Assembly (NCBI GenBank): GCA_050084515.1
Contig: CM114271.1
Location: 25,792,001-25,856,000, forward strand
Direction: 5' to 3'
Origin: Blasia pusilla
Taxonomy: Eukaryota
Length of the DNA stretch: 64,000 nt
The stretch's first letter is position 1. Every line of letters starts with the position of its first letter. The position numbers and the translations under genes are program-made. The notes beneath the pieces were generated by a model. That model had not been told where the DNA came from and searched no databases. It saw only the letters and a program-made list of their open reading frames with translations. Below are positions 11,812 through 59,566 of the stretch, one piece after another.

Positions 11812-12950
11812 TTAAAGGAAGGTTTGGAAGACGGGTGCATGGATAAAGCTTTCTGTGAGCACTAGAGATAGAAATCCTATCATGGCGAGTCGTCCGTTCC
11901 AGCGCTCGGCTTTGGCCGTGAAAGGCCCGAAGCTTCGAGCATCCGTAGACTCCCCATTCAGCATCGGGACAATTGACGCGTACGCGATCAAGGGAACGAG
12001 CGCGATGTACCACACCAGCCCCGTTCCCTGTGTGTACAGTTGATCGAATACCGTCAGCCCGCTCACCTTCTCTGCTACCGCCGCCCATACTACGCCGAGC
12101 ATCGCCTGCAACAAAGCGTATTGAATATCGGTGAAATTATGTTAAGAAACGTCTATGCCGAGCATCGCCTGCAACAAAGCGTATTGAATATCGGTGAAAT
12201 TATGTTAAGAAACGTCTATGCCGAGCATCGCCTGCAACAAAGCGTGTTGAACATCGGTGAAATTATGTTAAGAAACGTCTATCGCCTGCAACATAGCATG
12301 TTGGACATCTGTAAAATTATGTTAAGAAACGTCTATGCCGAGCATCGCCTGCAACATAGCATGTTGAACATTGGTAAAATTATGTTAAGAAACGTCTATG
12401 CCGAGCATCGCCTGCGACAAAGCGTATTGAACATCGGTAATTATGTTAAGAGACGTCTATAGTATCCAGCTTAAGCTCGACCAAATAGACTCGGGAAATT
12501 GAGTTTTTCCTGGCAGGAGAATGAGCTAGGGGCCTACAGAATCCTGTCCGGGCAGAGCGGGGAAAAACTCACCAATCGGCCGTTGATGGTCTCCGGTGCT
12601 GCACCGTCAAAAGCAAAAATGCTACCGATACTCTTGTCACCAGTCTCAGGGCGCCTCTCCACTTCGGGACGCGGGTAGAAGGAGCCGGATTTTGGCACAG
12701 CACCAAAGACTGATTTCTTCTCTGACTCATTCGTCTCCTGGTTTTCCAATATCTCCTCCCGGGTGATATCGTTCTTCGTGGCGTTGTCCACGGTCTCTCG
12801 AACACTTTCGCACCGGATGAAGTTCCTTCCGGCTACCATTGGCGTCGAACTCACACCGCCGAAAGCCACAGAGCTGGCCGGGTTCCTGAAGCGCTGGGTT
12901 GAGAATGACAAGCTCGACAAACCTCCCAAAACGACCGAAGAGGAAGCCAT
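11812..12950 (-). CDS. ELIP: Early light-induced protein (ELIP)/LHC-like chlorophyll a/b-binding family protein with transit peptide. Exons 12950-12573 and 12105-11812
   Basis: Two LHC helix motifs FAFDGAAPETINGRL|AMLG and AERWNGRLAMIG; Ser-rich N-terminus; GT donor at 12572-12571, CAG acceptor at 12108-12106. Confidence 0.9.
12094..12460. repeat. Six tandem copies of an ~63-bp unit (one lacking 9 bp) spanning the ELIP intron/exon-2 boundary
   Basis: Unit GCCGAGCATCGCCTGCAACAAAGCGTATTGAATATCGGTGAAATTATGTTAAGAAACGTCTAT starting at about 12094, 12157, 12220, 12283 (short), 12337 and 12400. Confidence 0.95.
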
Positions 12951-13135
12951 GATCGCCGCAACTGACACTCACTAGCAATAATTGATTTTCGTGAACGCAG
13001 CGATCAGAACACCACCGAACTCGGCAAGCTTTTCCAAGGAAAGCAATTCAATTTGCTCGAAAGCGGACTGGAAGATCTAAAAACCCTTTAGCATTCGACT
13101 TTTCGACAGTGACAATTCCAAGTGCAAGCTTCGAA

Positions 13136-13598: not shown

Positions 13599-16329
13599 CC
13601 ACTTTATTAGAAAATAAACCTCAAAAGAGGAAAAAAAGTCAGTCAGGGTCCACAATGCTCAAAATATCAGAATGGTATGAACTTGGTTGAATGATCAACC
13701 ATGACAACGCTCGAACTGCCCATGATTCACGTAAGAATATCTTCAGTTCCCACCGCTCACATGATGCGCAAAAACATCTCAAAAGAGGAGCCAAAAAATG
13801 CATGATGGAATGCGAAAAGAAAATGGCAACTAGCCAACGCAAACACCAACTCAACGAGCTGAATTGAAAGTCTGAAACAAATCTGACAAGAACACGAGTG
13901 TTTGGTCAGACGTGAATGGACGACGAGGCGAGCTACCCCACAACCACCTCTGCACGACATATCAATGCCAAGGCTTGTGGACGTTGTAAGGCCACTGAGA
14001 TGCATTGCCGAAAATAAGACACATGTAAATGACCGAATACTTCCACTGAAAAAGGAATAAATCCATCATTCGTATGTCTCACAACATCACTTAACTCATT
14101 GATTCTTGTTGCAGCTTCGGCCGCCTAACCTTTGGTATGTGCGGCTCAACACACCAAGTCAGAACTTGTTGGATCACCAACCACCAAATCACCTAGTGTC
14201 CGGAATACACCTCGAGACATAGCAAGATCCACTCTCTGACGAGAGGTTGCTTGTGTGGTTGAAGGTAGCACATGGAGTTGCTCTTGCCCAACGGTGTATC
14301 ATGCAGTACGAGCCACTGATGCAACCGCCTCTCTAATGCAATCATGTGTGGCTGTTCGTTCTCCACCATGTGCACATCAGAGAATATGGATACCCTTGGC
14401 ATCAATGGGATCCCCGCATACACAATTAGGCACACCTAATAGAGAAGGATGGGGAAGTCCAAGGCGTAACCGCAAAGCTGTCGAGAATATACTTCAAGAA
14501 AGACGAAATGGAAGAATAAGAGGATTCGCAATAAGGCACGCCCCCGCTCCGATACCTGCACATGAATGCAGACAAGCTCAATGAGCGTCAGAGGATGCCT
14601 CAGAGAGAATGCTAGAAAATTTGATTTGATGTAGATTCTCTGAGATATGCTCTTGAAGTCGATCAAGCCCTTCCATAATCAATTGACTGAAAGGGGGTAG
14701 AATTGCTTGTGTAGCAAGAGGAAGAAGAGCTCGTGCAGATCTCAATTGTTGTTGAAATAACAAGTTCCCCTCTTCTACATGGGCAACATGATCCATCAAG
14801 ATAGGTGTATCGCCTTGGCGAAACCTTGAAGCCATAATCGGTGCGACCAACGCCCAACTCCCCAAAAAGGCTGTGGGAGGAAATTAGACTGTGGAGCAAA
14901 GTCCCACCCCTCCAAAAGAAATAGGTAAGATAGTTTTTTGTGAAGCCAAGACACCATCCTCTCCCTCAAATATATTCGAGCCAAGAAGTTGACCAAAAGT
15001 TGCCAAGATAGAAACGTCAAAAGAGGCCGACCAACATAAGAACCTTGAAGTGGGAGGAGAAGTGCGAAGAAAGTAGGAAGGACGTCGTAGAAAATATTTG
15101 GAGAGAATCCCATAAGCCACTTGGGGATCCCCCAGATGAGGTAAAAAATGAAGCCATTACACGTCTTTCAAAAGGACCTCATCCAAGAACTTTGAGACAT
15201 AGTCGACGAAGTCAATTGGGACCCCAAGAACCCTAATCCCTTCAATGTAGATGGGAAAATCAGGAGTAGGTGGGGTGAATGTTGAGGGTAGGCATGAAGG
15301 AGACCATACTCCACATTTACTAGGCGGGACTTTAAGGTTTAAGAAAGAGAGTTGCTCCACGAAATGGATATAAGCAGGAACCACTTCAGAAGGAGGACCT
15401 GTTGAGTGTCATCAACAATAGAAGGGAAAAGAGAAGATGGAAATGCTTGTGCTCATGCTCGATGGAAACGAGAATGGGCAATGGCAAAGAGTGGGCCACC
15501 CATGGGATCACCTTGATGTGTACCACAAGCCGATTGTAAAATACTATATTCCCCGGAAGTAGCATGATGAGAATAGATAATGGGCGTATCATAGGCAAAG
15601 AAGGAGCAAACAAATGGAATAAGACTCGTAAGTTGTCCTCCTGCACAACGTAACTCCTCAAAGATGGCCGCACGAGAAACTGAATTGAATGCATTAGCCA
15701 CATCGACCTGAATTACTACCCATTCTGGATGAATATCAAAAGTGGAGCAAATCCCATGCACCACATCTTCACAACCTCCAGGAGTTGCCACTCCAAATTC
15801 ATGAGGAAATAAGTTGGCACTAAAGTGAGGACAAAATTGCAAGCATAGGGATTGACTAACCAAGCGGTATAAGACATCTCCAATAGCCAAACGGCGAACA
15901 CCTTAGGGAGGCTTATCCATAGCCAACAAACGACAAGCCCCTAAGAGCATGGAGACAAAGAATGGGAGACGACATGCCGCAATATGTGCACACACCTTAT
16001 ATATAGAGAGAGAGAGACAAAGCCACTTGCTGAATCTAGCGGGATAAAGCAATGGCGGAGATGCTCAAAAAACCATCCTTGATAGACCGCTTGCTGATAA
16101 GCAAGGAGTATGAAGAAAAGCCCTTGTGAAAACCTCCAAGTCAAGCTCCAAGTCAAGGTCCGTTGTAAAGTCTTCCACAAAAGGTGGAGCATCGCCACTT
16201 GAGGGAGGGTGAAGAGCTTCTAAGAGAGCCGCTTTTTCCGCACTTGGAACCTCCGGAGAGAGAGGACCCAACGCTCGAGCTGCACGTGAAAACTCACCAA
16301 TGAGCCCCAAAAGTAGACTTCGTCAAAGG
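13599..16329 (-). mobile_element. Degenerate CRE-clade non-LTR retrotransposon (RT, CCHC knuckle, restriction-like endonuclease), 3' part; ends at an (AT)9 tract
   Basis: Minus-strand motifs GEFSRAARAL, AIGDVLYRLV, HEFGVATPGGCEDVVH, DVANAFNSVSR, QGDPMGGPLFA, LRLRLG..CVCG...H...CAHGGERTATHD, RVDL...GDLVVGDP, FIPFSVEVFG and ISVALQR; AATAAA followed by (AT)n at 13598-13581; many stops and frameshifts. Confidence 0.85.
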
Positions 16330-16817
16330 TGTCATATCTTTTAGGATAGATCGATGAGATCTAGTAGAGCGCCTTTGTGAGTAGTGGAGGACAGGCTCAG
16401 TAGGTCGAGGATGACCTGTTGAAGCTCATTTGGAGCCATATTGAGCAACTTACTATTTTAGGTAACTACCATTTTGAGTATATGGTCGACTTTCTTTTTT
16501 TGGTAAGTGGCCTTTGACCTCCTACATCGGGTCAAGAGCTTAGGAGGTGACTTGGGAGAATATGTTACCATGGAGAGAGCTTGGTAGAAGGGAGCTTGGT
16601 AGAAGGGAGGGGTATACCTCAAGGAGAGAGAGCTTGAGAGCTCATTCTCTCTTTCTTGAACCTCTTGACATGAGGCGGAGGAGCTATGGTCCCTTGCCTT
16701 GTGAGTGTAACCCAAGCCTCTCATCAGGAAAGTGGGTCTGGTTTGACATGAGAGAGAGTACACATCTTTGAGAGCTATGGTGTGAGATGGTGTAGAGAGA
16801 GATTGGATCTTACTTTA
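16330..16817 (+). repeat. Terminal repeat block A1 (copy A2 at 25968-26476)
   Basis: TGTCATATCTTTTAGGATAGATCG...GATTGGATCTTACTTTA is highly similar to 25968-26476, apart from an ~40-bp indel, a 15-bp duplication and scattered substitutions. Confidence 0.95.
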
Positions 16818-18357
16818 CAAAGAGAGAATGAGAGAATGAGAGAGCTTCATGGGGAAGCTCGTCGGTCACTCGCTGTTTTTGCAGGTTGGGGACTGTGTTC
16901 CCTGTTCAGCGGCTCATAGGAGTGCTCACCAGAGCAAGGGCTGCTTGGACTGTTCTTTGCATTTGCCGATTTTTGTGTGGAAGAGTGGCGCACGGAAGCG
17001 CTGCCCAATTTCTGATAGGGATTGATTATGGGGGCGGGTTGCCCCATGCCGATGCTCTCGGGAGCACCATGTAGCTTGATGACTTGTATTTTTACAGGTT
17101 TTATATTTTGGTTGGGAGAAATCAGCGCGGAAGCGCTGCCAAATTTTGTGTAGGAGAAAGAGACATTGGGTTTTACGACAGTCCCTTTCAGTTTTTACTT
17201 TTGACGCTCTTGTAGATCGTGAAGCTATGCAGGTTGTGCAATAAACAATGCGCAATTTGGAGTTGCGAGTAAAAAGTTATGGTCAATCTTTCAAAACTGC
17301 CATTGCTAAGCAATTTTTAGAGTTAAATTGTTCAAACCCTAAACCAGCCGCCACGCCGGCGACGACTCTCGCCATCACCGGTCAATGGTCAACCGTCACT
17401 GTCAACCATCAACGGTCCACCGGCCACCGTCGGCCGTTGCTGTTGCCCAGCGTTGCTCAAAGCCGCATTCAGCCGTTGTCCACCCTTTGGTTGCCATTGC
17501 CGCCATTACGGAGTGGAGGGTCTTCCACGACGTTCGTTGATTCTCTGACTTGCGTCGCCACCACGTACTTTGTTTTGGCCGCCACAGTCATCAAAGTTTC
17601 GTTGTCAACTAGTGATGGCAGATGACTTACGGTTATGGTGTTTGAGTTTTGATTTCATGCTCCTATGTTGTGATTGGTAGCCGCTCGATGACGATCGAGT
17701 ACCGTGTCGTGACGCCCGTAGCCGTAATGCGCCGCCGATTGCCGCTCGTGGCCGCACCATACCGTCTCGATCGCAGAGTCCCACCGTCATTGTGGAAAAG
17801 AGTGTGGGTTTATTGTTGATTGAGGAGGGTATGCCGCGGAGTGCCGCATCCCACCATCGAGGGCCGTGCCGTTTGTAACCGTTCCGTGCCGCCTGCAACG
17901 CCGCACCGTTCCGCTGGAACCGCACTATCTATCGAGGAGTTTTGAGCAGCGTCTGTACGAGAGGAGTACGACTTGCTGATTGGAGGAGTTGTCTCCACGA
18001 CCGAGTTGGGGTTGAGATTTGTAGTTTCTGAGGAGCGACATTGACATGTGTTCAGGTTACCCATTTTGGTGCTTTACCCTACACGCGTGAGGGATTCTGG
18101 GATTTGGGTAGTTTATTTGGGGATATTGGGTTGTATGGATGCTGAGAGCATCATTTATGTATGTGGTTTACGGGACAAAGACCTGTGTGGGATGTCATGA
18201 GTTTAGGGTAGGTTGTCGATGAGATGATAGTGTGGTCGATTTGCCGCACCACGCCGCTTGTTGCCGCATGTTACACGTCTCGAGGAGGAAGAGTGTAGAT
18301 CGAGTGCTGCATGTTTGGGATGAGTGATTGAGCAATTACTCACAAGGTTGAGAGTGA

Positions 18358-19759
18358 TTGTGTGAGAGGGGCATTAGGGCCATCGCGGCATCTTTTCAGG
18401 ATTTTGAGAGGCGAGGTAGTGGACCTGAGAGTAGCTCTGGAGGGTTTACCCAAAGTGGTGCGAGGTTTCAAGGGTTTCTGCGTGAGAGACCACCTCGATC
18501 TCCTTCTGTGTCGTCTTCAGATGAGGGGGAGCGTATAGAAGAGTTTGTGAGCACATCGTCACACATTGTGAGTGGTCCTACCAGTCGTGCGTACGAGATG
18601 GACGATCGGAGTAGAGGACCGCGTAGGTTTTCAGGTGCAGTAGGCACGATTGAGTTGCATGATTTCATAGCAGAGTTTAGGAGTTGGTGCGACTCCGAGC
18701 GGGCTAGGAACTCTAGAGAGTTCCACATGTTTACACCATGGAACGGTATATTCCAGCATTTAGAAGGGGCGCCCATAGACGATTACCATGAGTTCTCTCA
18801 AAGATATGCACTTGAGATCGAGGCGTGGAGGCACTACTATGACCCCCATTATGTGCCATGGACAGAATTGTTCCCAGATGAGGAGGAGGAGTCAGGAGAG
18901 GCTATTTCCTCTTCCACTTGTGACGTTTTAGGAGAGGTCACTCGCACGGGAGCAGTTGCACCGTCTAGTCGGGTTCGTCCCAGGTTCAACCTTGTGGTTG
19001 AGTTCTTTGCTGAGTTGAGGACGAGCTACCAAGGGGTATGGACGGAGAAGTTGCGGAGCATCCACCACTTCCAGAGACTCCCGGGTGAGAGTTTTCATGA
19101 GGCTTACACTTGCTTGCGCTGATTGATCAACGTCACTCAGGGGTGATAGAGGCTCAAGCTATCCAGTTATGGTACGCGATGCTGGACCGGACCCTGCGGA
19201 CACGTATGCGGGAGGGGGTGCTTCTATGAACACCTCCCCTACGTTGAGAGATGTTTTTAGGACCGCCGAGAACATTGAGCGCAACATGGCGGAGGAGAGC
19301 GTAGCCACCATGGGTTCTGGGCGAGAGCTGTCACGATTGCCTGCACTACCTGTGCAGCAACGTGGACTCCGAGATAGGTCGACTGTGGCACCACGAGCTG
19401 AGGGAGGATACCGGGGGGGCGTGTCACAAAGACTTGCGCCTTCATATGCGGCTCAACAACGGCTGCCTACTATTACTTGTTGGTCATGTGGTGGAGCCCA
19501 TCATCAGCGCGATTGCACTTGTCAGGATCATGGACGTGTGCCTCAACATGGAGGAGGAGATGGTGCTGCACCAGGAGGTTATCGGTATGACTATTGTCAG
19601 AGGTATGGTCATACACGCGCCAAGTGTTTCAGTTTACATTCTCAGTTACGTCCGGACGGAGGGCCACACAGGGCACTAGAGCGAGTAGCTAGTCCGGGTG
19701 GGCCTAGAGATTGTGTACCAGGTGGTCCTGTTGGGGGACAAGGAGCTGGAGTTGCCTGA
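18358..19759 (+). pseudogene. gag-like ORF of the retroelement, with zinc knuckles
   Basis: FQRLPGESFHEAY retrotransposon-gag-like motif; CWSCGGAHHQRDC (CCHC) and a degenerate second knuckle YCQRYGHTRAKC; interrupted by a stop and a frameshift. Confidence 0.75.
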
Positions 19760-20537
19760 CACGGTGGTGGAGTTTCCCATGGAGGAGGTAGAGTACCACC
19801 ACCTAGACGCGCCTAGAGAGATGCCGGACGTGAGGTTGGGATGGATGCTCAGATACGGCAGCTACAGGAGCAGATTTCTGTTATGGCATCGTTACCTGAT
19901 GCCAGATCCGTGGCATTGACATCATATGGAGCAGCCAGAGATCTGGAGGATCCTGGTTGGATGTGCAGGGTTGCCCAGATGGAGGCATCCGGAGTTGTGA
20001 TGCGTGGAGTAGCCGCAGAGTTGGATCCACAGTGAGGGGAAGCCAGGGAACATACTAGGCTTCCTCATTCTTTCACGTTGTCCGAGGCGATGAGGACCCC
20101 ATCGATGGGTCCTTATCAGAGTTCCTGGAGAGTTGGTGTGCATGCACAGAGGGAATGGGAGAAGCGAGTACAACGACTCCTATTGTTGATGCTCAGGAGG
20201 GGCATGTGTCGAGCACGTTGTTTGGGGCGGCCACCGTTGTGTACCGCACTCCTTTATTTTCTACTTCTGATGTTATGACGTGGGGGGGGGGACTCTCGCC
20301 GAGGCTTTTCGGCTGGCCGTTTCACTATGTGAGCGCGGAGTTGGAGTTCTTGCATCACGTTCAAAGGTGATTGCAAAGGAGGTGATGGACTTGCCCTTGG
20401 AGCGGGTGCTCGGGCCATCCACGTCAGATTCGTGGAAGGCTGCGGCTGCTAAGATGGCGGAGATGCTCGCTAGACCAGCGATACAGCGTGCCATGGCTTC
20501 TCCTGGTATTGTGTTGCTAGATAACTGAGGAGCGGTC

Positions 20538-20873
20538 TTGCAGTTGGTGAGTCCCGGAGGTAGACCTTTTAGTCCGCAGCGCGTCTTGTTGGATTCAAGA
20601 GCACAACCCCTGATGTTGGGGAAAGCGTTATTCAGAGGATTTGGCTTGACGAGAGCCGATGTGGAGCGTTGTCCATTACAGATACAGAAATCCTTGGGTG
20701 GAGCGAGTACCACACAGTATATCACCCAACAGGAGGTCATGGTGAGGATTCGCCCGGAACATCCTACAGATGAGTCCGTGGTGCGAGCCAAGGCGATAGT
20801 GATTGATGCAGAGTCCTACGATGTCTTGGTTGGTGGAGCAGAGTTATACCCGATGGGGTTTTCCCTAGATTAG
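20538..20873 (+). pseudogene. Retroviral-type aspartic protease domain (degenerate)
   Basis: VLLDSRAQPLMLG (DSGA mutated) and downstream YDVLVGG. Confidence 0.7.
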
Positions 20874-21299
20874 TGGGAGTAATCAACGTCCTACACACCA
20901 TGATGGCAGTCATGTGATGGGTGCCTTAGCTCATTACCTGTTCGATTCACAGGTGCAGTGATCGAGCGATGGCCATGAGAGGTGGTGACCTTAGCAGCAT
21001 TTAGCAGTGCCTTCACTTGGCCTAGTGATTTGATTGAGGGACATGTCCATGCAGAGGATACTCATATTCCTGACATTTCTATGGAGAGGAGTGTTATGGT
21101 ACCCGCATCATTCCGTGGAGGAGAGGTGCCGTTCTGGGGCTCGATTTAGGAGCTTTGATGATTGGCAGATGAGCATGTGCAGGCCGCGTGGAGCGAGGCA
21201 TTTGCACCGGAGCATGAGGGGTCTGAGGAACCCGAGGTAGCATGGAGTGCTACGATGACACCCTTGGATACCACACTTATTTTGTGGTGTACCCTTGAG

Positions 21300-22250
21300 G
21301 AGGGTATTCGAGTGTTAGATCTCTTTGGAGGGATTAGCACCGGGTTAGCTGTTGTTTTGCAGGCCGGGGTACGAGTACAATAGTACCTGTATGTGGAGAG
21401 TCATGATGTTGCGAGGCGCGTCTCACTACAACATGTGGCGTAGTTATGCCTACATTTTCCCGACTTATTTTCTACGTCCACGGTACAAGAGTACAAGAGT
21501 TCCCTACCAAGGGATATTTTTTTGATGGGGGCGTAGGACTTAGAGCAGGTAGGGATCATTGATTTGGTCATTGCCGGTTGGCCATGTCAGGGCCAATTGA
21601 GTGTTGGACGAGGCAGCGGGCTGGCTGACACTCGGTCTAGGTTGTTTTGGGAGATGTTGAGGTTCTTACGGCAGTTGCAGGAGCACCGGTCTCGTTCTCC
21701 AACCTACAATTTGGAGAATGTGCCGATCTTAGGAGACTCCAGGTCACAAGTGGTGACAAGTGCTCATCAGGTGCGTGCCGAGATCGGCCCAACAGTGTTC
21801 TTGGATGCGGCGAGTGTAGGTTCTAGAGCCCATCGCATGCGTCTATGGTGGACCAACTTGGTGCCCTGTGCAATATTACGGAGGGCGTATGCAAGAGTGG
21901 AGCGCCCCTCCTATTTGTTAGTGGATTCCATTCTGAATCCAGGTCGTCGATCACACGCAGCGAGGTACGATGATCGACCACCGTTGACTGTGGTCAATCG
22001 GGTAGGCAGGCCACGGGCAACCTTGCCCACGTTTGTGAGTTTTCTTGCTTGCTATGCATACAAGGAGGCCGGTCCTGACTTGGTTTGGGATGAGCATGTT
22101 CAGCGGTTGGTGGAGCCCAATGCCGACGAGAAAGAGCGAGCGATAGGATTTCCCACAGGAGTGACGGCAGTACCCTCAGTGTCAGAGGTATCACGACGCC
22201 ATATCTTGGGTCCCGAAGTGCTTGACGTGGATCCTCAGCTTGGGAGTGGC
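21300..22250 (+). pseudogene. C5-cytosine DNA methyltransferase domain (DNMT3-like) inside pol
   Basis: One frame carries motif I VLDLFGGI, IV DLVIAGWPCQG, VI LENV, VIII AHRMRLWWTNL, IX EPNADEKERAIGFPTGVT and X RRHILG; TAG stops at 21381, 21441 and 21534. Confidence 0.92.
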
Positions 22251-22659
22251 TGAGCAACGTCATATGAGATTGCAACAGATCACATCGGTTGCGTTGGTGA
22301 GCCCCATGCCTACCAAGATGGTGGAGGTAGTGGCTGGAGGCGAGACCCGAGAAGATCCACACACTAGGGGAGATCGGGAGAGACACCCTTGGACTTCTTG
22401 GGATGTTTTGAAGGTACGCCAGGAGATGATAGCCATAACATCGAGCGTGGTTCCGGACACTGCATGTGGAGGAGATCAAAGTTTGCACTTGGTTGCAGGA
22501 GAGCGGTCGAGTGTCGTTGTTGGAGATGGGGTTGCACCATAGCAACCACCGATATCCGCGCTGGAGAGTCCTACCGAAGTCACGATGGAGACTTGGGAGC
22601 CGGATATGGGCCTTAAGTTGACAGGAGGAGAGCGGCGCCGAATACATCAGTTCCTCAGG

Positions 22660-24010
22660 AGTTATAGGAGCTGTTTTGCGTTTAGCATGGAGGATTTGGG
22701 TACGCTGGAGGGACCGCGGATCCGCATTGAGTTGTCGAGTAATACGCCAATCTTCCGATGACCCTACAAGTACAGTGATATGGAGAGGGCTTTGATTCAG
22801 AGTAGGAGCCAGGACTTGGTTGGAGCAAGACTAGTGAAGATGTTGCATGCGGAGTATGCATCTGCCACTGTCATGCCCGCCAAGAAGGATGTGCATGGCA
22901 ATTGGACGGATGGGCGGATGTGTGGGGATTACCCACCTATCAATCGGCAGACAAAGTCTGATAGGTATGCCATGCCCACCCGTGGGGAGATGTTTGATGC
23001 GATTGGTCACGCAAAGGTTTTCAATTCATTGGATTTGCAAGCTGGATACCATCAGCTGCCTATCAGATTGGAGGACATGTAGAAGATGGCATTTTGGGGC
23101 ATCGATCCTCATGGGAAGGATTTTTGTATCAGTGGCGGTTTTTACCATTTGGATTAAAGAACGCCCCAACTGAGTTTCAGAGGGTCATGGATAGGATCTT
23201 GGCTGGTCTGGATTTTGCTAGGTGTTATATTGATGACATCGTAGTCTTTAGCGCCACGATTGAGGAGCATGAGCGACATCTAGAGGAGGTGTTTCGACTA
23301 ATTGCAATTACATGAGCTGAAGCTACATCCAAGCAAGTGCAAGTTCTTCTACGACGAGATTGAGTACTTGGGTCATACGATATACCCATGGGGCCTTGGT
23401 GTTTAGCAGACGAAGGTAGAGGCTATCTCACGCATTCCACGCCCTACAAATGTGAGCCGTGTTCGCGCATTAATGGGATTGGCGAACTTCTATCGGCGGT
23501 TTGTCAAGGGATTCAGTTTGATTGCAAAGCCGCTGACCTTGCTGACCAAGTTGGATCACGAGTGACACTGGGGGATGAGCAGGAGCGAGCATTTCAATTG
23601 CTCAAGGACAGGTTGACATCTGCGCCCATCTTGAGGAGACCGATTAAGGGGTGTCCTTTCCAGTTGCACACATATTGGAGCATGTTGGGGCTTGGAGCGG
23701 TGCTCACCCAGCATGATGATCAGGGTAGAGAGTTTGTGGTGGCTTACGCTAGCCGCTCGAACAACCCTAGAGGCAAAGTAAAACTCGTATGAGGATGAGT
23801 GCTTTGCTGCAGTGTGGGTTGTTGCGCATTTCAAGTGTTACTTATTCGGCAATCCCTTTACCATCATCACTCATCATCAACCACTAAAGTGGTTGATGGA
23901 GTCCGACAAGCTTACAACGAAGCTTGCGAGATGGGCTCTGTTGTTGCAGGAGTATGATTTTCAGGTGGTACATAGACCTGGGACGCTCAACCAAGATGCA
24001 GATGGGTTCA
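22660..24010 (+). pseudogene. Reverse transcriptase and RNase H (Gypsy-type)
   Basis: RMCGDYPPIN, LDLQAGYHQ, LPFGLKNAPTEFQRVMD, YIDDIVVFS (YIDD at 23226-23237), LGAVLTQ, VVAYASRS, KLARWALLLQEYDF and HRPGTLNQDADGFS. Confidence 0.95.
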
Positions 24011-24399
24011 GTTGTAACCCATGCCCGAGTTCGCAAGATGCGACTGGAGCTCGATGGCATGGAGAGAGTGATGAGGAGTCAGTGCCAGGATGGCACACGT
24101 CAGCCTATTTAGGCATGTTGGCTATGGAGAGCCAGAGTGTGGAGACTTTGATGGCGAGGTCTAGTGGAGAGTCCTTGGATCCCGAGGCCTTTGAGGAGAT
24201 CATAGGTGGCCGAGATATTCATGATGATGGAGTAGTCTTGGAGTACTTTCGTACGGGTAGCGTTGCGAGCACTGTGGGTGCTAGAGAGCGGGATCGGATC
24301 CTACAGCGGGCCAGACGGTTCCTTTGGGAGGGGACACATGTTTTGAGGGTTTGGGTAGGTAGGGTACGCGTAGTTCCGCATCCTTTGCAGAGAGCACGA

Positions 24400-25651
24400 C
24401 TAGTGCAACATGCCCACGAGGAGTTGGGTCACTTTGGGGTGAAGCGGAAGTACAGCTTGCTTCAGATTCAGCATTGGTGGCGAGGCATTATAGACTGACG
24501 ACCAGCAGTTTGTTGCCAAGTGCATGGTGTGTGATCGGGTCTGAGCATCGTTCAATGCTCCGACTCCACACTTGCATCCATTACCTATCATGGGCTTAGG
24601 GTATAGATGGAGTTCGGATTTTTCAGGACCTTTGCCTTTGACGGAGCATCACAGTCGTTATGTGTTGGTGATGATCGAGCACTTCTCGAAGTGGATCGAG
24701 TTGGTTGCATTTCCTGACAAAGCGAGTGAGGGAGTAGCTTATGCCTTCCTTAATAGAGTGCTGAGTCATTATGGCGCACCGGCTCAGGTGTTGACAGACG
24801 GGGTACCGATTTTTGCGGTGAGTTCCATGCCTTGTGTGATCAGGCTGATCGACCACCGCACGACTTCGCGAGATTATCCCGAGGCAGATGGATTAGCGGA
24901 GAGAGTTGTGCAGACGGTGAAGAGGGGTTTACGCAAGTATGGCTTGAAGAGAGATCACCTAGGAGATTGGGACCTCCAGTTGCCATGGTTGGCGATGGGA
25001 TATAGATTCAGCAGGCAGGCATCCTTAGCGTCTTTTTCACCGTACTTGCTACTTTATGGCCGAGAGCTAGATTTACCTGCGGCCATTCATCAAGATGCTG
25101 GTGAGATGCTGGACCTTGATGACCCAGATGTATGGATGCGAGCATGTTATTAGAGGGCTGAGTTGTTTTGGAGAGTGATGCCCATGGCGTTCGAGAACTT
25201 GGCGATTGCGTAGCATCGAGATACGTTGAGGTATGCGAATATTCGGGGTGGTGGTTATCGCCCAACTATCCGGAGGTTTCATCAAGGAGATTATGTCTTC
25301 TTGCAGCAGACGGCACCGACGACATTGGATGTGACTGCAAGGCGCACTATCATGAGAGTGCGTGACGTTTTGCCATCCGGTGTTCTCTTGCTGGAGGGAC
25401 GTGATGATCTGGTATGGAAGGACCATGTGCGTAATTGTGCGCCATGTAACCTTCTTAACATTGATGGTAAAGTAGATCCAAGCTCAACAGTAGTTTCTGC
25501 AGGCTTGCGTTGTATGTTGTGTGGTTCTGCTCGTGATGCGGCCACGATGCTAGTCTGTGATGGATGTTCGAGAGGTTGGCATATGGCATGTCTGACGCCA
25601 CCTCTCACTAGGGTTCCTCGGGGACGATGGATGTGTCCCAGATGTACATAG
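24400..25651 (+). pseudogene. DDE integrase (HHCC + core) with C-terminal PHD finger
   Basis: HAHEELGHFG...CMVC, WSSDFSGP, EHFSKW, VLTDG and GLAERVV; PHD (C4HC3) CMLC...CDGCSRGWHMACLTPPL...WMCPRC at about 25510-25647. Confidence 0.92.
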
Positions 25652-25837
25652 AGGAGATACTAGGTAGGTTTTGATTCCGAATTTTTCTGTGATTTGGATG
25701 ACAAGAAGGTAACTGACGATGGGGCCACATGAGTACCCGGCCTTTCTGCTCTTAGCGTCCTTGAGATGTATGTCATGGTACGTAGGGATAGATGGCTATC
25801 TGGAGTTAGAGGGACCTAACCACCAGCTAGGGGGGCG

Positions 25838-25965
25838 ATTGGAGATAATTTAGTACTTCTTGTCTCGTTGTTTGGATGCCATGAGTTAGCATGGGATCGT
25901 GCGTATTTGTGTGTGTGTTCGGTGATAGCGATGTATGTTGTGTAGCGATGTGTATGGGCATGACA
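25838..25965 (+). repeat. Repeat block B1 (128 bp; copy B2 at 26476-26603)
   Basis: ATTGGAGATA...GTGTATGGGCATGACA closely matches 26476-26603 ATTGGAGATA...GTGTATGCGCACGACA; preceded by AGGGGGGCG. Confidence 0.95.
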
Positions 25966-25967
25966 AC

Positions 25968-26603
25968 TGTCACGTCTTTTAGGATAGATCGGTGAGATCT
26001 AGTAGAGCGCCTTTGTGAGTAGTACAGGCTCAGTAGGTCGAGGATTAAATGCTGAGGCTCTGGGAAACCTGAGAGAGCAGGTTTCTCCATCGTTTCGGCT
26101 CATTTGGAGCCATATTGAGCACCTTACTATTTTAGGTAACTACCATTTTGAGTATATGATCGACTTTATATTTTTGGTAAGTGGCCCTTGACCTCCTACA
26201 TTAGGTCAAGAGCCAAGGAGGTGACTTGGGAGAATAGGTTACCATGGAGAGAGCTTGGGAGAAGGGAGGGGTATACCTCAAGGAGAGAGAGCTTGAGAGC
26301 TCATTCTCTCTTTGTTGAACCTCTTGGCATGAGGGGGCGGAGCTATGGTCCCTTGCCTTGTGAATGTAACCCAAGCCTCTCATTAGAAGAGTGGGTTTGG
26401 TTTGACATGAGAGAGAGTGCACATCTTTGAGAGCTATGGTGTGAGATGGTGTAGAGAGAGATTGGATCTTACTTTATTGGAGATATTTTATAACTTCTTG
26501 TCTCGTTGTTTGGATGCTATGAGTTAGCATGGGATCGTGCGTGTTTGTGTGTGTGTTCGGTGATAGCCATGTATGTTGTGTAGCGATGTGTATGCGCACG
26601 ACA
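25968..26603 (+). repeat. Repeat blocks A2 (25968-26476) and B2 (26476-26603), forming the right end of the element
   Basis: Starts TGTCACGTC, ends CACGACA; A2 abuts B2 directly at CTTACTTTA/TTGGAGATA. Confidence 0.95.
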
Positions 26604-26607
26604 AAGG

Positions 26608-27338: not shown

Positions 27339-29711
27339 AACACATCAACTTTGGTAGGATCCTACAAAAGTTCATGTTTATTGAACTAAGGGCAAGCTCA
27401 ATGAATCTCCCCATGATTGGTTGTAGAAGTTTCATAATTAGGTAGCGTATTTTTGTAGATATTCTTCATTACGTTGCTTAAGCCAATGAAAATCATCACA
27501 TATTTTCTCCAAGCTTTTGTGATCTTAAATTAGCCTGTAAACACATCCTACAATTCTTTCTAAGTTGTCGAATTTTTGGGTTAGAACCTTACCTGGGAGT
27601 ACAACTTCCCTCCCATCAAGTGCTTAAATAGTGACTTGCGTGACGCGACTAGTGGCTCATTTATACTATTAAGAGAGGATGGGGTTAGAGAAACCCTCCT
27701 CCGACGTCAACACATGTCCTTTCAAACCTCTTCTGCTATTGAGACGTGTCAGATTTAAGGAGTAGTTAAATTAAGAGGATCAATTTTCCCCTCACATGGG
27801 CAACATACTAGTTTCTTATATGTGAGACTTGTTGCATTCTTGAAAGTTGTAAGTAAGTGGTGTAATATAATTGGTATGTTCAAAATAAAAAGCATCTCAC
27901 TAAAAATAATTTTCACTCCTCCATTTCTAGTCTTGAGAAGGCTCAAGTAATTCTTTGTGGTCATTCCTCTAAAATTCATGCAAGTTCTCTTTGTCTCCTC
28001 CAAATCTTACATTCCCCATAATATAAAAAAGCATTTTCAAAATTAAAAGTATTATTATTATTTCTTCGTATTATACAAGTCATGAATATAATGATTATTA
28101 TAAATACAAATCCATAAAATAATTTTCAGAATCCGGCGGTGGTGTGAATGAGTCCGAGTGCGGAAACCGAAGAAAAGCTCAGCACTCGACGCTGATTTTG
28201 CAGCCCACCGTTGTTAGTGGACTTGCCGGTAGCCCGGCACCGCACAGGTGGAGTGCGACGCTCCTTGGGAAACAGCGATGGTACCTCGGGACGCGACTCA
28301 GTGATAGTTACGGTGCCGCTGACGAATTCATAACAGTTGAAGCGCCTGCGCTCCGTCCCGTGCGAATGGTGTGGTGGTGAGTATGTTGGAGACTATTTCA
28401 GAGTAAACCCTAGAATCACACTTCGGAGCTAGGATTTGCACTTTCTTAATTTCTCACGGTGTGCGTACACATACGGTACAAGATTGGCACTGCCATGCCG
28501 ATTCGGTCTGCTACTGTCCTCCGCACGTGACATATCTGATCGTATCTTGTATCTTTCGACTGGATCCGAGCTTGCATTCCGAAGAGGCCTCGCTCTCAAA
28601 TTTTGTGCGTGGATGTTCACGACTTTTTGGCTGCATCTGCACATGTGACGACCTAGAGAGTCCGAACAGAGCAAGATTTGGATGTGATGGAATCGACCCT
28701 GAGTGGGGCTCAAAAACGAAGATGCACTTCGATAAAAACGAGTGATGGAAAACCCATCGGAAGTACAAAAGAGGGGGACTCAATGAGTCAAAACCTGAAA
28801 GCCACAACAGGACCAGAAAAGGAAGAAGAGGGCATCCCCCTACCGACGAAACTCACACCAGAAACAATATCAGCAACAACAAGAGAACTATGACTACTAC
28901 CTTTGGTGCGGTGAGCGTGGACTCTAAACCTCGTCCCCGGCCCGTTAGTTAGTTGTCAGACTCGCATAGGGGAAACGCGCTACGTGTGGTGTATGTATTT
29001 GACTGGGATGCGTTTCAGAGGCAGTTGGCAGCTCACGGGGATATACTGGTTGATTGCTATACACACCTACATGACAGCTATTTGTGGAGATTGGCTTTAG
29101 ATTTCAGAGGACATCAACTGACTAGATTGACGTCCGACTGTGGCCAGACGCTTGAAACAGCTTTTCCAATACTAATAATTGGTAGGTTTAGGCGAACTTC
29201 TGGCGATGGCGTTGTAGTCCTAGTAGACAGTGGGAGTAAGTCGAACATTCACACCTCTGACGAAGAGATATGATTCGTTACAGATACGACTCATCGCCAG
29301 TCAAATGAGGTCTCTGAAAGTCAGCGGAGAAGTTTCAAGCAAGTCCTTCTCTGTAAATTTGCATTGTTCATCGCTGTCTCGTCTACCTGCTCCCGATTAT
29401 TCCGAAATCACAAGACAAATCCAAAAGCTGACGAAAGTTGTGGATAGTAAGATAAATGAAGAAACTTATTCCATCACTTGTATGGTAATCTCGCTTCTTA
29501 CGGATTTTTGATATGGAATTTAGAAATTTCCAATTTGGGTGGGTCTACAGGTTCCTTTGGTCGTCACTTCTTTTCAACAGTGGACAGACACAGGCACTAT
29601 CTACACGACGTTGTATCAAACGGGCACATTCTCCCATGTACGAATCAGAAATGTCTCATCTCAGAGAATTGAAAGCCAGAGTCGACTCGCTACCTAATCG
29701 GCTCTTAGCGT

Positions 29712-31825
29712 CTACCGCGCTCCGTCACTCAGAATCTGTAGACCGGAGCTGGCGAGTGCTGCCATTTGATCTCTTGAGAAGACAGGCGTTGGGAACACCA
29801 GAGAAATAGTCAGCTCCAGACCTTGAGGACCTTCCACTAGGGCTTCTCCGATACTGAAACAAGGGCCGACGCCGTGCATAGATGCGAATGGTCCAAAAGT
29901 CCCGGCAAGGTTTAGCTTCTCGACATTCTTCCACCTCGAATCAAGTGTCTTGGTGAAGGCGGAACACAATGCCGTCCTGAGTGAAGATTTTGGCGTCAAA
30001 TTCGGTCGCTTCAAAACCTGTACAAGATCAGGTACCAGGAATTAGTGTTATATACGAAACTGATTCTCCGAGGTATAGGGAGATTCTTGAAGTCCTTACA
30101 TTCCTCTTTGATCGCCTGTTCGAAGACGGAAAACGACGGGATCTGTACTGAGTATCTTCGTGGCAAAGAAAAGACGTACACTGACAATTGTTCTTATGCA
30201 CTGGGGCCGCGTGCTGTGCTTTCCATGACAAGCAAGTTCTCAAGCAGACAATCGCAACAAGCATTAAGTATTCCAGCTTGCAGGAGGCACACAATTCAGA
30301 ACGAAGGTGTGGTCTACCTGAGAGAAAAGCATGTTCATCACAGGGATTTCGGAAAATTGGCGCGATTTCGCCAACTCCTTCTCAGTGGCAGAGGAAACGC
30401 TTCGAGCGAGCTCCCAGAGATCTGCATCTGGCTTCACTATCTCGTCTTGAGAGACCCCACCACTATAGTTTCCAAGTGCCAGATCGGCCACTGGCGGCTC
30501 AAAATATGGTCGACAATCCACGATACTGTCATTCCACATACAGACAACTTCAGAAAATCGATCACATCCCTACTTCTGACGGTCAACGGCCACAATCCTC
30601 AATAGAACAAACGCGTGCAGAGGTAAGATAAGGTGGTTACGAGCTACTCAAATGACTTTCCCTAGACTCCACACACAGACCTGGTGAAGCTGAAATGCGA
30701 CTTTTTCTCCTTCAACTCTTTCACACCCGCGGCTGCCTTCAAGAAGGCTGCAGTGAGGGCTGCAGCTGGCGTTGTTTTCTCCCTTTCGCAGGCAGCCAAG
30801 AAGGACGACGTAACTGGGAAACAAGTGCCAGATTCACAAAGGATTCAAGAGGTAAGATCTCAAACCCGAATCAGCCATCACGTATCTACAGAATAGAAGG
30901 ACCTCCGCTTGGACGCCGCATCCCTAGTTTACATCGCGCAGTTGAGAACCTAATCTAGACACGCTGAGGACTGTACAGGAAAACCTGAAGATAGAGAACT
31001 CATATAACCTGCAATCTTAGTGTGCTTACCATTTTTGCCGAGAGAGTAGCTCAAGATGTCACTCTGAAATTTGCTAGGCTTGGCATCGGAGAATCCCGAA
31101 TGGAAAGGAAATAAAGTGTATTTCCCAGCTTGAACGGCGTATCCCACGGTGTCCAAACCCTTCTGAAAGAAACCCTTGGATTTCCCCTTGGGAATCATGT
31201 CTTCGAACGCAGGAAGGAGTTCATTCTTGCCGGGAACTTCCGGCAGCTGCAGCTCCTGCCCGTCCACAATGCAGTTCAAAGCGGTGAGGAAGCTCTGCCC
31301 GATGGTGACAGCAGAAGGTCTGTCAAGGCCACCGCTGACGAACCTCAAGACTATGATCGTCTTGGGCTGAGATGGCTCCGTGTACACGTGAATCTGGAAG
31401 AGATTCATAGGCCCCGTCACTTTCTGAGACGCATTGGGGAAAGGAGTGTTTAACTCTTTCTTGACTATGTGGTTGAGCGCCAGGCTCAGATTGTTGTCGC
31501 TGTTATCGCCTGGAAGAATCAGAATTGCTGTAGTGCTGTCGATAAGTAGGGGCCACGGAAACACTTCCATAGAAGGCGTCGAGGACCCTTCAGAAACTTG
31601 ATACACGAGTTTACCTTTCGAGTTTTCTACTATCCGGGACCTGAGAAGCGCGTGGCACTCCATGACAGATTTCGCAGCCAGAATTATCTGCTTCATCTCC
31701 ACAATCCTCTTGAAAGCAAACCCAAGAACCTGAACTCCTGTTCCTCCAGCCGTGGCCTTGGTCCAATTCTCTTCAGTCGCACCGAGTGCTCTACCGTTCT
31801 CGGCACCATCCTGACTGGGAGCCAT
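29712..31825 (-). CDS. Condensation-domain/CoA-dependent acyltransferase-like protein. Exons 31825-31030, 30813-30681, 30525-30318, 30017-29712
   Basis: RALGATEENWTKATAGGTG, HALLRSRI, ELNTPF, LLPAFEDMIPKG, FLAACEREKTT, IVDCRPYFEPP, DLWELAR, SMHGVGP and FPTPVFSRDQM; GT-AG exons in frame. Confidence 0.8.
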
Positions 31826-34177
31826 GTCTGGCTTACTTGTGAAGATGGGATGGGTCCTCCTGCTGAACTGCGAGTAGAACCTCCACCCACCTCCTCTGCC
31901 CTGCGTAGCCAAAATTCGTCTGCACAAAATCCTCACTCCTTAGTTAAACTTTCAGAACAGCGCAAGCATGCTGCCACCATAACACTTACGGCATTTGAGT
32001 AAGATCAGCTCTCAGATGTCCCCTCAGCTCCGAAAAACCACCCACCGCACAACCTGTATGTGAGATTGGATCAGGTCGACACTAAGGTGGTCGGAGGCCA
32101 TTCCTCACACGTTCGGACGAAGCGAAGACACGGCGAGGAGGGGACAAAACCTCCACGATCACAAGGGTGACACATACAAGGATTGCATATCACCCTGAAA
32201 GTCTGATTAATGATTCAACAGATACGTCGGGAAGTCTTGGACATAATGAAAATGAGCAGGCTCGCCACGGGATAATCCAAGAGTGGTGCTATGGTAGAAT
32301 GGGCACATTCTTCCAATGCTGCACAGCGCGTTGCCAGTTGGTGCACTCCCACAGGTATACATGGAAAATCAGTTCAAGTACGAACGACATAGAAGACACT
32401 TCCCTGCAGCTGCCGAATTCACCAATCCACTAGCTCAAGCACTCTAGGTGAGTGACTATGGTACGACAACGGCCAGACGAGCAAGAATGCGATCATGATC
32501 CACAAAATGGGCTCTTCTGTGGACTTCCTGGTCCTTGCAGTAGACAGTAGAACTAAACGGAGAGAGAGAGAGAGATGCAAGACGATGAAAACTCCAGGAG
32601 CCATATGCCTGATTACACATCAAAAGGAGAGCAGCAGCAAAGAATTGCTCTGCATGGCGAATACAGCAAGCGGAGACGGAAGCGGCCCTCACCAGCTCAG
32701 CAAACCCTGCTCGTCGCCTCGGCAGACGATCCACCACGAACAGAGTCCCAACTCAAAACAGTGATTAGCGAGCGCGCACTTGGAATTCACTCAGCTCCGG
32801 CCTTCGACTTACAACTCACAGTGCACAGGAGCTATAAGGCGGAGAAGAGTCGCACAGGTCAACAAGGGATGAAGAAGGCGGTGGGCGATCAGGTAATCGG
32901 GCGGCGGTCACAACTTCACATAATATTCAGCTCATTGTTTAGCGAGTAAAGGCAGGGGAAGACATCGCATACCATACCAAAAGAGAAAAAACGAGATGTT
33001 AGCAAACAAAGGGTAGAGAGGAGGCAACTCATCAAACAATCAAACAATTAATGCTACTGCTCCCCCAACGTCAGAATCAGCTGGGCGAGCAGCAGTAGCT
33101 GGAGCTGTCACGAGAGAGTGACTGCTCTGACGGGTGGCCTCCTTACGGGAAGTGTCAGTGCCGACAACTGCACAAGTCCACGGCACCTAAAGGGTACGAC
33201 TCTGTACGTTACCTACCGACGTCCCCCTCGCCATCCCCCTTCCTTTCACTCATCGCTACGCTACACCCCTCCCCCTCCTCTACATCCTCCTTGTATCTCT
33301 TGTAAGTTTCTACTCTACGCTTCCTTTTTTACGCTGCCGCTGTATTTAGACACGACCATGGGCATACAACGCTCCACTGGGCTTTATTTCATGGATGTGT
33401 CAATGCTTTTTTCGCCTGCGCGCGCACGCGAGTGCTCTGCCGATGGATGGATGGGTCTGGTCCGTTCAACGGACGGAAATGCGAAGGAAGGAGGTATTGC
33501 CGGAAACCCGAGGGGTGGTATTTGTCTTTTTATGTACAGGTATTGTAAGTAGTAAGTACAGCGCTGAGAATGCTCACCTATCTGACACGCCTCAAACGTA
33601 ATGCTACAAAACGAAACTCCTCTTTATAGTAATTCGTTCGAGTCCGTAGACGTCATTAATTAAATTTAGATTACTGGAGAGTGCTTTTCATTTTTCAAAT
33701 TCCTTTCACGCTTCAGGCATTTAGCACTTGGGAGGAGGGTTCGTGTCATGAGATTTGTCGATTTAGGGTCAATGCAACTTACTTGAAAGTTAATTATGGG
33801 AGGGAATATGAACAGGAGATAATATATTATTTTAAACTAAATCGAATAATTTTTGAAAATAACTAAACTGTCTAATTAACTGGACACAGAAAATATCTCA
33901 ACCATAAAAAATAGCCATACCCATTCTTTCTAAGGTTAAGGTTAATCACATCTATCATGCATATACCAGAAAAGGAAAATGTGAACGAATCAATAAAAAT
34001 GTGTATACGAATTAAAAATATTTTTGAATGTAGGTTTCATTTTCTTGCAAATTTGACTTTCATGACTCTTTTTTATCGTGCACGCATGTTCACAATCCAA
34101 TTACCATTCATGCTATGAGTTTCACACACGAAACTTCACACAAGTGAAGAATTCGGAGTAGTATAGTCCCATCCATG

Positions 34178-59295: not shown

Positions 59296-59566
59296 CCTAA
59301 TGAGAGGTGGCGTCAGACATGCCATATGCCATTCTCTCGAACATCCATCACAAACTAACATAGTGGCTGTACTATGCGCAAAACCATACAACATACATGG
59401 CAAGTGAATAGGAACTAGCGCCAAGCTCAGATCAAAAGTAATGTCAGTGTTTGGAAGGTGATATTATGCACATGATCCTTCCAAACCATACCATCGCATC
59501 CCTCCAATAAAAGAATATCAGATGATAAAACATCATGTACTTTCAAGATAGTGCAAGACCAAACAT
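59296..59566 (-). mobile_element. Fragment (integrase C-terminus + PHD) of a second member of the DNMT/PHD Gypsy family
   Basis: Minus strand KVHDVLSSDILLLEGCDGMVWKDHVHN...TMLVCDGCSREWHMACLTPPL closely matches 25350-25610. Confidence 0.85.

Follow-up and report, generated by a model that had tools for sequence, protein, structure and literature searches.

A DNMT3-like methyltransferase domain in a decayed gypsy-type retrotransposon of Blasia pusilla and its relatives in other green plants

Transposon-borne cytosine methyltransferases present a paradox, as hosts rely chiefly on DNA methylation to combat transposons. Here we analyze a 64,000-nucleotide stretch of the genome of the liverwort Blasia pusilla (GenBank assembly GCA_050084515.1, contig CM114271.1, positions 25,792,001 to 25,856,000 of the forward strand; hereafter "the window") that contains a DNMT3-like C5 cytosine methyltransferase domain within the remains of a retrotransposon. 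Positions 16330-26603 of the plus strand very probably constitute one old, dead insertion of a Ty3/gypsy-like element belonging to the "Gypsy-DNMT3" lineage. The methyltransferase is the C-terminal domain of a first open reading frame (ORF1) that also encodes Gag and the protease (PR), giving the order gag-PR-DNMT, while the reverse transcriptase (RT), RNase H (RH), integrase (INT) and a terminal PHD finger follow in the same frame as ORF2. Sequence comparison identifies the domain as a long-standing part of the family, evidently maintained by purifying selection, and other members retain its catalytic residues. Because Klebsormidium nitens shares this layout, our results extend the host range of a known arrangement and do not describe a new one.

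The methyltransferase features of the window copy are as follows:

21252-22250, plus strand: DNMT3-type C5 cytosine methyltransferase domain, with motifs I, IV, VI, VIII and IX ordered in one frame
21315-21347, plus strand: motif I, LDLFGGISTGL
21573-21593, plus strand: motif IV, AGWPCQG
21711-21725, plus strand: motif VI, LENVP
21828-21857, plus strand: motif VIII, AHRMRLWWTN
22113-22154, plus strand: motif IX, EPNADEKERAIGFP
21381-21383, 21441-21443 and 21534-21536, plus strand: in-frame stops within the domain, all TAG

A first-pass annotation made from the letters of the window had proposed these five motifs and part of motif X in order in one frame, interrupted by three TAG codons and a frameshift at motif X. 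Both proposals hold at the level of individual positions: the motifs can be read between 21315 and 22154, the stops begin at 21381, 21441 and 21534, and the core of motif X is deleted and frameshifted, with a remnant of 7 nt (22212-22218) where relatives carry the six codons of QAMDLN. Homology runs up to RRHILG, which ends at 22211, and resumes in the +1 frame as CLTWILSLG from 22219; relatives read GQAMDLN at the damaged site. In the window copy the domain is thus disabled by its three TAG codons together with the frameshifting loss of the motif X core, whereas an intact motif X in an open frame is found in the relatives P0005, P0025, L005 and L022 (P and L numbers denote proteins and metagenome loci, respectively). 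Despite this damage, the Pfam methylase profile PF00145 scores the window domain at 31.2-31.4 bits (E about 2e-7), above its gathering cut-off of 22, and the relatives at 27-58 bits. A phmmer search of the window copy against the PDB returns DNMT3A (8.1e-13), DNMT3C (9e-10) and DNMT3B (1.5e-9), and, among non-DNMT3 enzymes, DRM (6.5e-4) and M.HhaI (0.02). The best database relatives of the domain match at E 4e-122. Given these profile, structure and database scores, the similarity is not due to chance.

The class of the enzyme was examined with a family profile built from eight members and searched against the PDB, so the comparison is with solved structures only. The profile matches DNMT3A at 2.3e-21, DNMT3C and DNMT3B at about 1e-18, DRM at 1e-11, M.HhaI at 1.6e-6 and DNMT2 at 3e-5 to 9e-5, and no named match to DNMT1 or CMT was obtained at E<=0.01. 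An AlphaFold model of the intact relative P0025, computed with 36 aligned sequences, has a mean predicted local distance difference test (pLDDT) score of 90.7. Every row listed by Foldseek for this model is DNMT3A, DNMT3B or DNMT3C, the best being 6brr_A (E 5e-19, template modeling score 0.83 on the target), and the fold alignment with DNMT3A has about 22% identity. The motifs follow the non-permuted order I-IV-VI-VIII-IX-(X), unlike those of DRM. Cys140 and Gln141 of the motif IV PCQ and Glu183 of the motif VI ENV are invariant across 36 diverse family members. Neither a PWWP nor an ADD domain is detected by Pfam in the ORF1 sequences of P0005, P0175 and P0123, and the DNA_methylase domain is the only one that it finds in ORF1 of P0005. 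The PHD finger behind the integrase is the only reader-type domain of the element. Sequence, family profile and predicted fold agree with the earlier description of a DNMT3-like, retrotransposon-encoded enzyme and place the domain in the DNMT3 class, closer to it than to DRM, DNMT1, CMT, DNMT2 or the bacterial enzymes.

Relatives of the domain are widespread. Word-index searches with the read-through translation of the domain returned 23 longer proteins and 25 of similar length, none more than 62% identical to the window copy. Named relatives come from Calypogeia fissa, Marchantia polymorpha (for example Mp_4g09160, Mp_8g17980 and Mp_6g11220), Marchantia paleacea, Sphagnum and Closterium; gag, protease and DNMT share one ORF, which runs without a break in intact members. 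Among metagenome contigs, 78 loci were found, and a profile search of 1.84 billion cluster representatives retrieved 14,858 proteins at E<=1e-3, 480 of them at E<=1e-30. Many of the best 150 profile matches listed (all E<=3.4e-67) are polyproteins of 1,000-3,456 residues, and no host DNMT3 gene could be identified among these 150. Matches with an assigned organism comprise four from Closterium, one from K. nitens (GAQ93235.1, P0175) and one "pol" protein from Scenedesmus sp. (KAF8056149.1). In the K. nitens protein, a single ORF encodes first a CCHC knuckle, then an aspartic protease and last the DNMT. Its collinear BLASTP alignment with the Marchantia protein P0005 covers 569 residues (29% identity, E 1e-54), so the window element and the K. 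nitens protein are arranged alike. The first-pass annotation had suggested that the arrangement would reach a land plant and had allowed that the domain might be a host fragment captured by this copy. The land-plant origin is borne out by a neighboring spliced gene closest to proteins of M. paleacea and Riccia, which places the host among Marchantia-like liverworts, and the numbers of word-search matches, loci and clusters given above exclude a domain confined to one copy.

The DNMT occupies one of two placements within these elements. Bryophytes, Closterium, K. nitens and some metagenome proteins have the order gag-PR-DNMT-RT-RH-INT (placement 1), and the Scenedesmus pol protein and many metagenome polyproteins have RT-RH-DNMT-INT-PHD in one long ORF (placement 2), with the full order visible in 40 proteins. 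DNMT trees were built after near-duplicate and certain long-branched rows had been dropped, with two distant M.HhaI-like proteins as the outgroup. In the tree of 58 rows, placement 1 forms one group (support 97/89), and a single change of state separates the two placements (34 and 18 labeled rows). With the K. nitens row included, that row is found on the placement 1 side of a branch with support of 92/94 (not starred), its own branch being long (1.98); a quick tree put it inside a clade with support 98*, together with a long-branch warning. Since the outgroup is distant and the root uncertain, the direction of the placement change cannot safely be read from these trees. Within the closest DNMT clade, Sphagnum copies are nested among liverwort copies on very short internal branches, so the relationships of the elements are not simply those of their hosts; old lineage sorting or transfer could account for this nesting. 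Some database entries for transposon ORFs (P0006, P0015 and P0030) bear the name "DNA (cytosine-5-)-methyltransferase".

To assess selection, the codons of every locus were aligned to P0025 and nonsynonymous (dN) and synonymous (dS) divergence was calculated by the Nei-Gojobori method. Between the window copy and 54 other copies, dN ranges from 0.31 to 0.79 and dS is saturated in 52 of the 54 comparisons. The loci L001-L053, which group with Sphagnum proteins in the DNMT tree, allowed 990 pairs to be compared, and the ratio dN/dS (omega) in this set falls with divergence:

dS 0.05-0.1, 31 pairs: omega 0.84
dS 0.1-0.2, 530 pairs: omega 0.57
dS 0.2-0.4, 327 pairs: omega 0.51
dS about 2, 43 pairs: omega 0.16

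In a further 44 pairs within L001-L053 dS is saturated. Most of these copies are dead, with one to nine in-frame stops in 50 of the 53, and no in-frame stop occurs in the distant loci L054-L065, L068 and L069. The omega values fit the expectation that recent differences reflect neutral decay after insertion and deep ones derive from constrained, active lineages. The search for intact copies and the dN/dS comparison proposed earlier thus yielded intact members (P0005, P0025, L005 and L022) and an omega far below 1 at depth; together with the invariant catalytic residues, that value excludes a family free of purifying selection.

The remaining parts of the element are listed here:

16326-16329, plus strand: left copy of a candidate 4-bp target-site duplication, AAGG, found again at 26604-26607
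16330-16817, plus strand: repeat A1, 5' terminal, beginning TGTCA and matching A2
18595-19760, plus strand: gag region, broken by stops and frame changes, from tblastn with Marchantia P0005 and Sphagnum P0022 and from the ORF list
19478-19516 and 19595-19627, plus strand: two CCHC knuckles in gag
20286-20870 (approximate), plus strand: aspartic protease region, collinear with P0005 and P0008
20586-20606, plus strand: protease active-site triplet, D-S-R here and D-S-G in relatives (LLDSGAQ in P0005)
22219-22539, plus strand: C-terminal tail of ORF1, in the +1 frame relative to the DNMT owing to the deletion, aligning with the tails of P0005 and P0022
22540-22548, plus strand: in-frame TAG followed by CAA CCA at the boundary of ORF1 (gag-PR-DNMT) and ORF2 (RT-RH-INT-PHD), a candidate leaky stop
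22543-23315, plus strand: reverse transcriptase with an internal frameshift (Pfam RVT_1, E 1.3e-15; tblastn with P0008)
23226-23237, plus strand: RT motif YIDD
23364-23960, plus strand: RNase H (Pfam RT_RNaseH_2, 1.5e-16; RT_RNaseH, 1.5e-16)
24380-25150, plus strand: integrase with H2C2 zinc domain and DDE core, 66% identical to Sphagnum P0022
25214-25648, plus strand: C-terminal extension of the integrase with the terminal PHD finger at 25511-25648
25838-25967, plus strand: repeat B1, ending in GACA plus 2 nt, adjoining A2 and 94% identical to B2
25968-26476, plus strand: repeat A2, matching A1
26477-26603, plus strand: repeat B2, the right end of the element (ending CGACA), 94% identical to B1

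The order gag-protease-RT-RNase H-DDE integrase is that of Ty3/gypsy elements, with the DNMT inserted after the protease, and the degenerate element measures 10.3 kb. Besides the methyltransferase, the window copy is damaged in gag, in the protease motif and in RT, and the integrase matches to Integrase_H2C2 (2e-5) and rve (6e-7) lie slightly under the Pfam gathering scores in this decayed copy. At the protease position, the K. nitens and Closterium relatives match Asp_protease_2 or gag-asp_proteas. The repeats are laid out as A-coding-B-A-B and not as paired long terminal repeats, alike in the window, L042 and L028, with the 129-nt repeat B on both sides of A2; no repeats were found in L055 or L063, which are of the RT-RH-DNMT-INT type. 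The termini read TGTCA...GACA and are flanked by 4-bp duplications, AAGG in the window and L042 and TCTC in L028. Where B1 meets A2 (25966-25969, and likewise in L042 and L028), GACA faces TGTCA across 2 nt (AC, GC and AT), so that the junction resembles joined ends, or a circle junction, built into the element. A1 and A2 are about 91% identical by blastn and 93.8% identical over aligned columns (Kimura two-parameter distance 0.065). The element is old, its two A repeats being some 6% apart; an age of a few million years is a guess that borrows the substitution rates of other plants, and liverworts may differ from these. The ratio of observed to expected CpG is 0.75 in the element and 0.66-0.78 in the flanks, which is no useful difference.

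Sequencing reads further define the insertion and its kin. About 1/100 of a whole-genome shotgun (WGS) run labeled as the same species was used, with reads of at least 95% identity retained and depth summed over both orientations. Past position 26603, 235 reads diverge into mutually different sequences (agreement 0.35), which marks this position as the end of a multi-copy element. The single-copy flank has a depth of about 1x, repeat A2 about 540x, the gag knuckle region (19207-19807) about 100x and the RT-integrase part (22813-25216) 74-138x, while the DNMT bins (20409-22211) have 5-11x. Most of the reads (8,403 of 8,846) are 95-99% alike to the window copy and come from other copies; the family or its close kin is therefore abundant in this genome. 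At 227 places the window has A or T where other copies have G or C, and at 122 places the reverse holds, an A/T excess that fits C-to-T decay of the window copy. The drop in depth spans 19808-22800 as compared with 22813-26476, leaving the PR-DNMT part roughly tenfold lower.

The first-pass annotation placed the DNMT between the protease and RT, which collinear tblastn matches of Marchantia and Sphagnum polyproteins and the Pfam assignments support, and described it as lying inside pol. That wording is right about the flanking protease and RT, but the stop at 22540-22542, which recurs across the family, parts the DNMT from RT; the domain is accordingly part of the gag-PR ORF rather than of a pol read without a break. 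To survey the junction, we moved upstream in frame from the start of RT to the nearest stop in 41 sequences that cover it, from the window and the loci L001-L057. Thirty-eight of the 41 carry TAG or TAA followed by CAA-CYN, in frame with RT: TAG CAA CCC in 21, TAA CAA CCC in 12, TAG CAA CCA in two (the window being one), TAG CAA CTA in two and TAG CAA CTC in one. The annotated Calypogeia and Marchantia proteins P0002, P0005 and P0006 terminate at the conserved stop. The leaky stop context of the tobamovirus type is UAG-CAR-YYA. A conserved stop of this kind would set the ratio of Gag-PR-DNMT to RT-RH-INT. Re-initiation at the ATG of CAA CCC ATG was considered, but we favor read-through, as that ATG is present in the L001-L053 group of copies and absent from the window, L022 and L056/57.

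The element ends in a PHD finger (25511-25648; Pfam E 2.2e-12). Wherever contigs extend that far (18 loci), this domain lies behind the integrase, distant intact elements included, and it is kept in both DNMT-placement architectures. The closest solved PHD fingers are those of CHD4, PHF12, KDM5A/B (PHD1), PHF21A and AIRE. These fingers are readers of the unmodified histone H3 tail, those of CHD4, KDM5A/B (PHD1), PHF21A and AIRE of unmethylated H3K4. A minus-strand fragment at 59296-59552 is related to the integrase tail and PHD finger (56-67% identity) and contains stops.

How might these parts work together? We propose that the enzyme would be translated at the C-terminal end of a Gag-PR-DNMT polyprotein, in amounts similar to those of Gag, and that RT-RH-INT-PHD would be made only upon read-through of the stop. 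The methyltransferase would then enter the particle with Gag and methylate, de novo, the newly made DNA of the element or its new insertion, and the PHD finger of the integrase could steer insertion to chromatin with a particular state of the H3 tail. We assign this joint mechanism a probability of roughly 40%.

Several observations weigh against it. The strict CAR-YYA context is found in only four of the 38 junctions (CAA CCC accounts for 33 and CAA CTC for one), and we infer read-through from context alone; in addition, one unbroken ORF spans both DNMT and RT in P0100, a metagenomic relative. The PR-DNMT segment has a read depth of 5-17x, as against about 74-540x for the knuckle part of gag, RT-INT and repeat A, and most close relatives in the genome may lack the DNMT segment or differ there; either such copies exist or the window copy is locally more diverged. 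Across three RNA runs, with orientation judged against the minus-strand host gene described below, sense depth is thin: RT-integrase has 2-6, the 3' end 14-31 and the DNMT bins at most about 1, compared with about 80 for the host gene. We do not take this thin coverage as evidence for or against the expression of DNMT-bearing copies. Finally, the methyltransferase domain of KnitGypsy-Dnmt3, the K. nitens element, produced no methylation in its only published assay, made in yeast, a result that the authors call inconclusive (PMC5890265).

A second explanation, which we regard as possible though rather unlikely, is that the DNMT acts in trans in the nucleus, on host DNA, on rival elements or on the family's own resident copies, either to hold down its own copy number or to imitate host marks, with the gag-PR fusion serving merely for expression. 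Its position upstream of the stop would produce the DNMT in large excess over RT and integrase, no sequence feature ties it to complementary DNA (cDNA), and the authors of PMC5890265 likewise leave the role open. Yet the fusion to Gag-PR in one ORF has been kept from K. nitens to bryophytes, and a DNMT fusion inside pol has been kept in the sister group, both of which are consistent with an enzyme that acts in connection with the particle or the pre-integration complex.

The read depths bear on a third explanation, in which the DNMT module is being lost in the liverwort genome: abundant relatives would lack or have replaced PR-DNMT, and the window domain would be the relic of an older subfamily. 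The contrast between about 5-11x over 20409-22211 and about 100x, 74-138x and about 540x in the adjoining parts speaks for such loss. The 95% cut-off, however, makes depth very sensitive to the local divergence of an old copy, the values come from only about 1/100 of the run, and plain deletion cannot hold for all copies, as autonomous ones need the protease. We consider this explanation unlikely.

That the enzyme might instead methylate RNA in the manner of DNMT2, placing m5C on the genomic RNA of the element, seems quite improbable. RNA methylation is raised in PMC5890265 for a DNMT borne by LINE elements, and the inactivity of the K. nitens domain on DNA in yeast would be in keeping with it. 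Against this, sequence, profile and fold match DNMT3 (E 1e-21) and not DNMT2 (3e-5 to 9e-5), and related DNMT3 domains borne by DIRS elements methylate CG in DNA according to the same source. Capture of a host DNMT3 fragment by the window copy alone, or a host gene lying beside a transposon by chance, has nothing beyond the DNMT3 similarity in its favor and is refuted by the family-wide gag-PR-DNMT-RT order (at least six named genera and dozens of metagenome loci), the collinear polyproteins, the continuous ORFs of intact members and the low omega at depth.

Near the element, positions 29424-32700 of the minus strand hold a host gene that is expressed and spliced, a PapA_C or wax-ester-synthase-like acyltransferase by the Pfam labels of its relatives; RNA reads reveal its introns, four with GT..AG ends on that strand (30016-30315, 30526-30680, 30814-31029 and 31920-32692). 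It is closest to proteins of M. paleacea (70%), Riccia (61-62%), Calypogeia (50-53%) and Sphagnum (52%), with vascular plants more distant. Other retroelement remains are RVT_1 fragments at 15453-15902 (minus strand) and 52540-53460 (plus strand) and a different gypsy-type RT at 57981-58738 (plus strand), which is 24-32% identical to a Marchantia polyprotein. A tandem array at 12038-12501 (plus strand) comprises at least six copies of a 63-nt unit, 66-91% alike, whose open frame repeats a 21-residue peptide. Close by, an ORF at 12534-12968 (minus strand) begins MASSSVV, has no Pfam match and ends in the motif FAFDGAAPETINGRL, which we take to resemble that of light-harvesting-like one-helix proteins.

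The lineage is thus present in land plants (M. polymorpha, M. paleacea, Calypogeia, Sphagnum and the liverwort of the window) and in Closterium, with a sister architecture in a chlorophyte, and instead of an origin in the "K. nitens lineage" an older or more mobile one is indicated. The conserved stop and the PHD finger of the integrase yield concrete hypotheses, and the function of such enzymes could be studied in a genetically tractable plant, M. polymorpha. Since transposon ORFs stand behind several bryophyte entries named "DNA (cytosine-5-)-methyltransferase", the host methylation genes of these genomes can be overcounted. A broader view, which we offer as speculation and judge doubtful, is that Gypsy-DNMT3 is ancient across green plants, from chlorophytes to bryophytes, and carries a self-contained epigenetic kit: in the streptophyte branch, a de novo DNMT3 made at Gag-like abundance ahead of a leaky stop would be packaged and methylate the element's own cDNA, and the PHD finger of the integrase would steer insertion toward a particular chromatin state. 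If this were true, part of the bryophyte DNMT3-like gene count would be transposon-borne, and the purpose of transposon-encoded DNA methyltransferases would become testable genetically in a land plant, as M. polymorpha has members. Within the literature searched, which excluded supplements, figures and subscription journals, transposon-borne DNMT3 was reported only from Symbiodinium and K. nitens (PMC5890265), with later one-line mentions; bryophyte or Closterium cases and the Marchantia gene identifiers did not appear. One preprint mentions "streptophytes (Gypsy-DNMT3)" (bioRxiv 10.64898/2026.05.21.726589).

Compared with known enzymes, the family matches host DNMT3A/3B and plant DNMT3 in catalytic fold and motif set but lacks PWWP and ADD domains and is fused to Gag-PR; its motifs are non-permuted, and those of DRM are permuted. 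The Scenedesmus-type elements likewise have a DNMT3-type domain, 36-43% identical to P0025 as the bryophyte-type query, along with the same gypsy RT/RH/integrase set and C-terminal PHD finger, and differ in placing the DNMT between RNase H and integrase within one long ORF. Like the leaky stop of the tobamovirus type, the junction of the family has UAG or UAA followed by CAA with replicase-type domains downstream in frame, although its third codon is CCC in 33 of 38 cases and not YYA. Murine leukemia virus (MuLV) also expresses gag-pol by stop read-through; the stop in the present family lies after the protease and DNMT and not after Gag. Chromoviruses are gypsy elements with an integrase chromodomain, and the window family likewise has a chromatin reader at the C-terminus of its integrase, with a PHD finger in place of the chromodomain.

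The systems nearest to ours are the two described by de Mendoza et al. 2018 (PMC5890265). SymbioDIRS-Dnmt3 of Symbiodinium likewise carries a DNMT3-type domain in its polyprotein and A-coding-B-A-B repeats, and its de novo CG methylation was shown in yeast; it uses a tyrosine recombinase, whereas the window family has a DDE integrase and 4-bp duplications. KnitGypsy-Dnmt3 is likewise gypsy-type, with a non-rearranged DNMT3-type domain in its polyprotein and, according to the legends of Fig. 1e and 4c, the A-coding-B-A-B repeats of DIRS elements that the window also displays. Purifying selection is indicated in both, by a Ka/Ks below 0.2 for KnitGypsy-Dnmt3 and by 0.16 for the deep pairs here. 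The two differ in that copy number looks high in the liverwort genome, and in their hosts: the report sets the acquisition "in the K. nitens lineage", and the elements described here reside in liverworts, mosses and Closterium.

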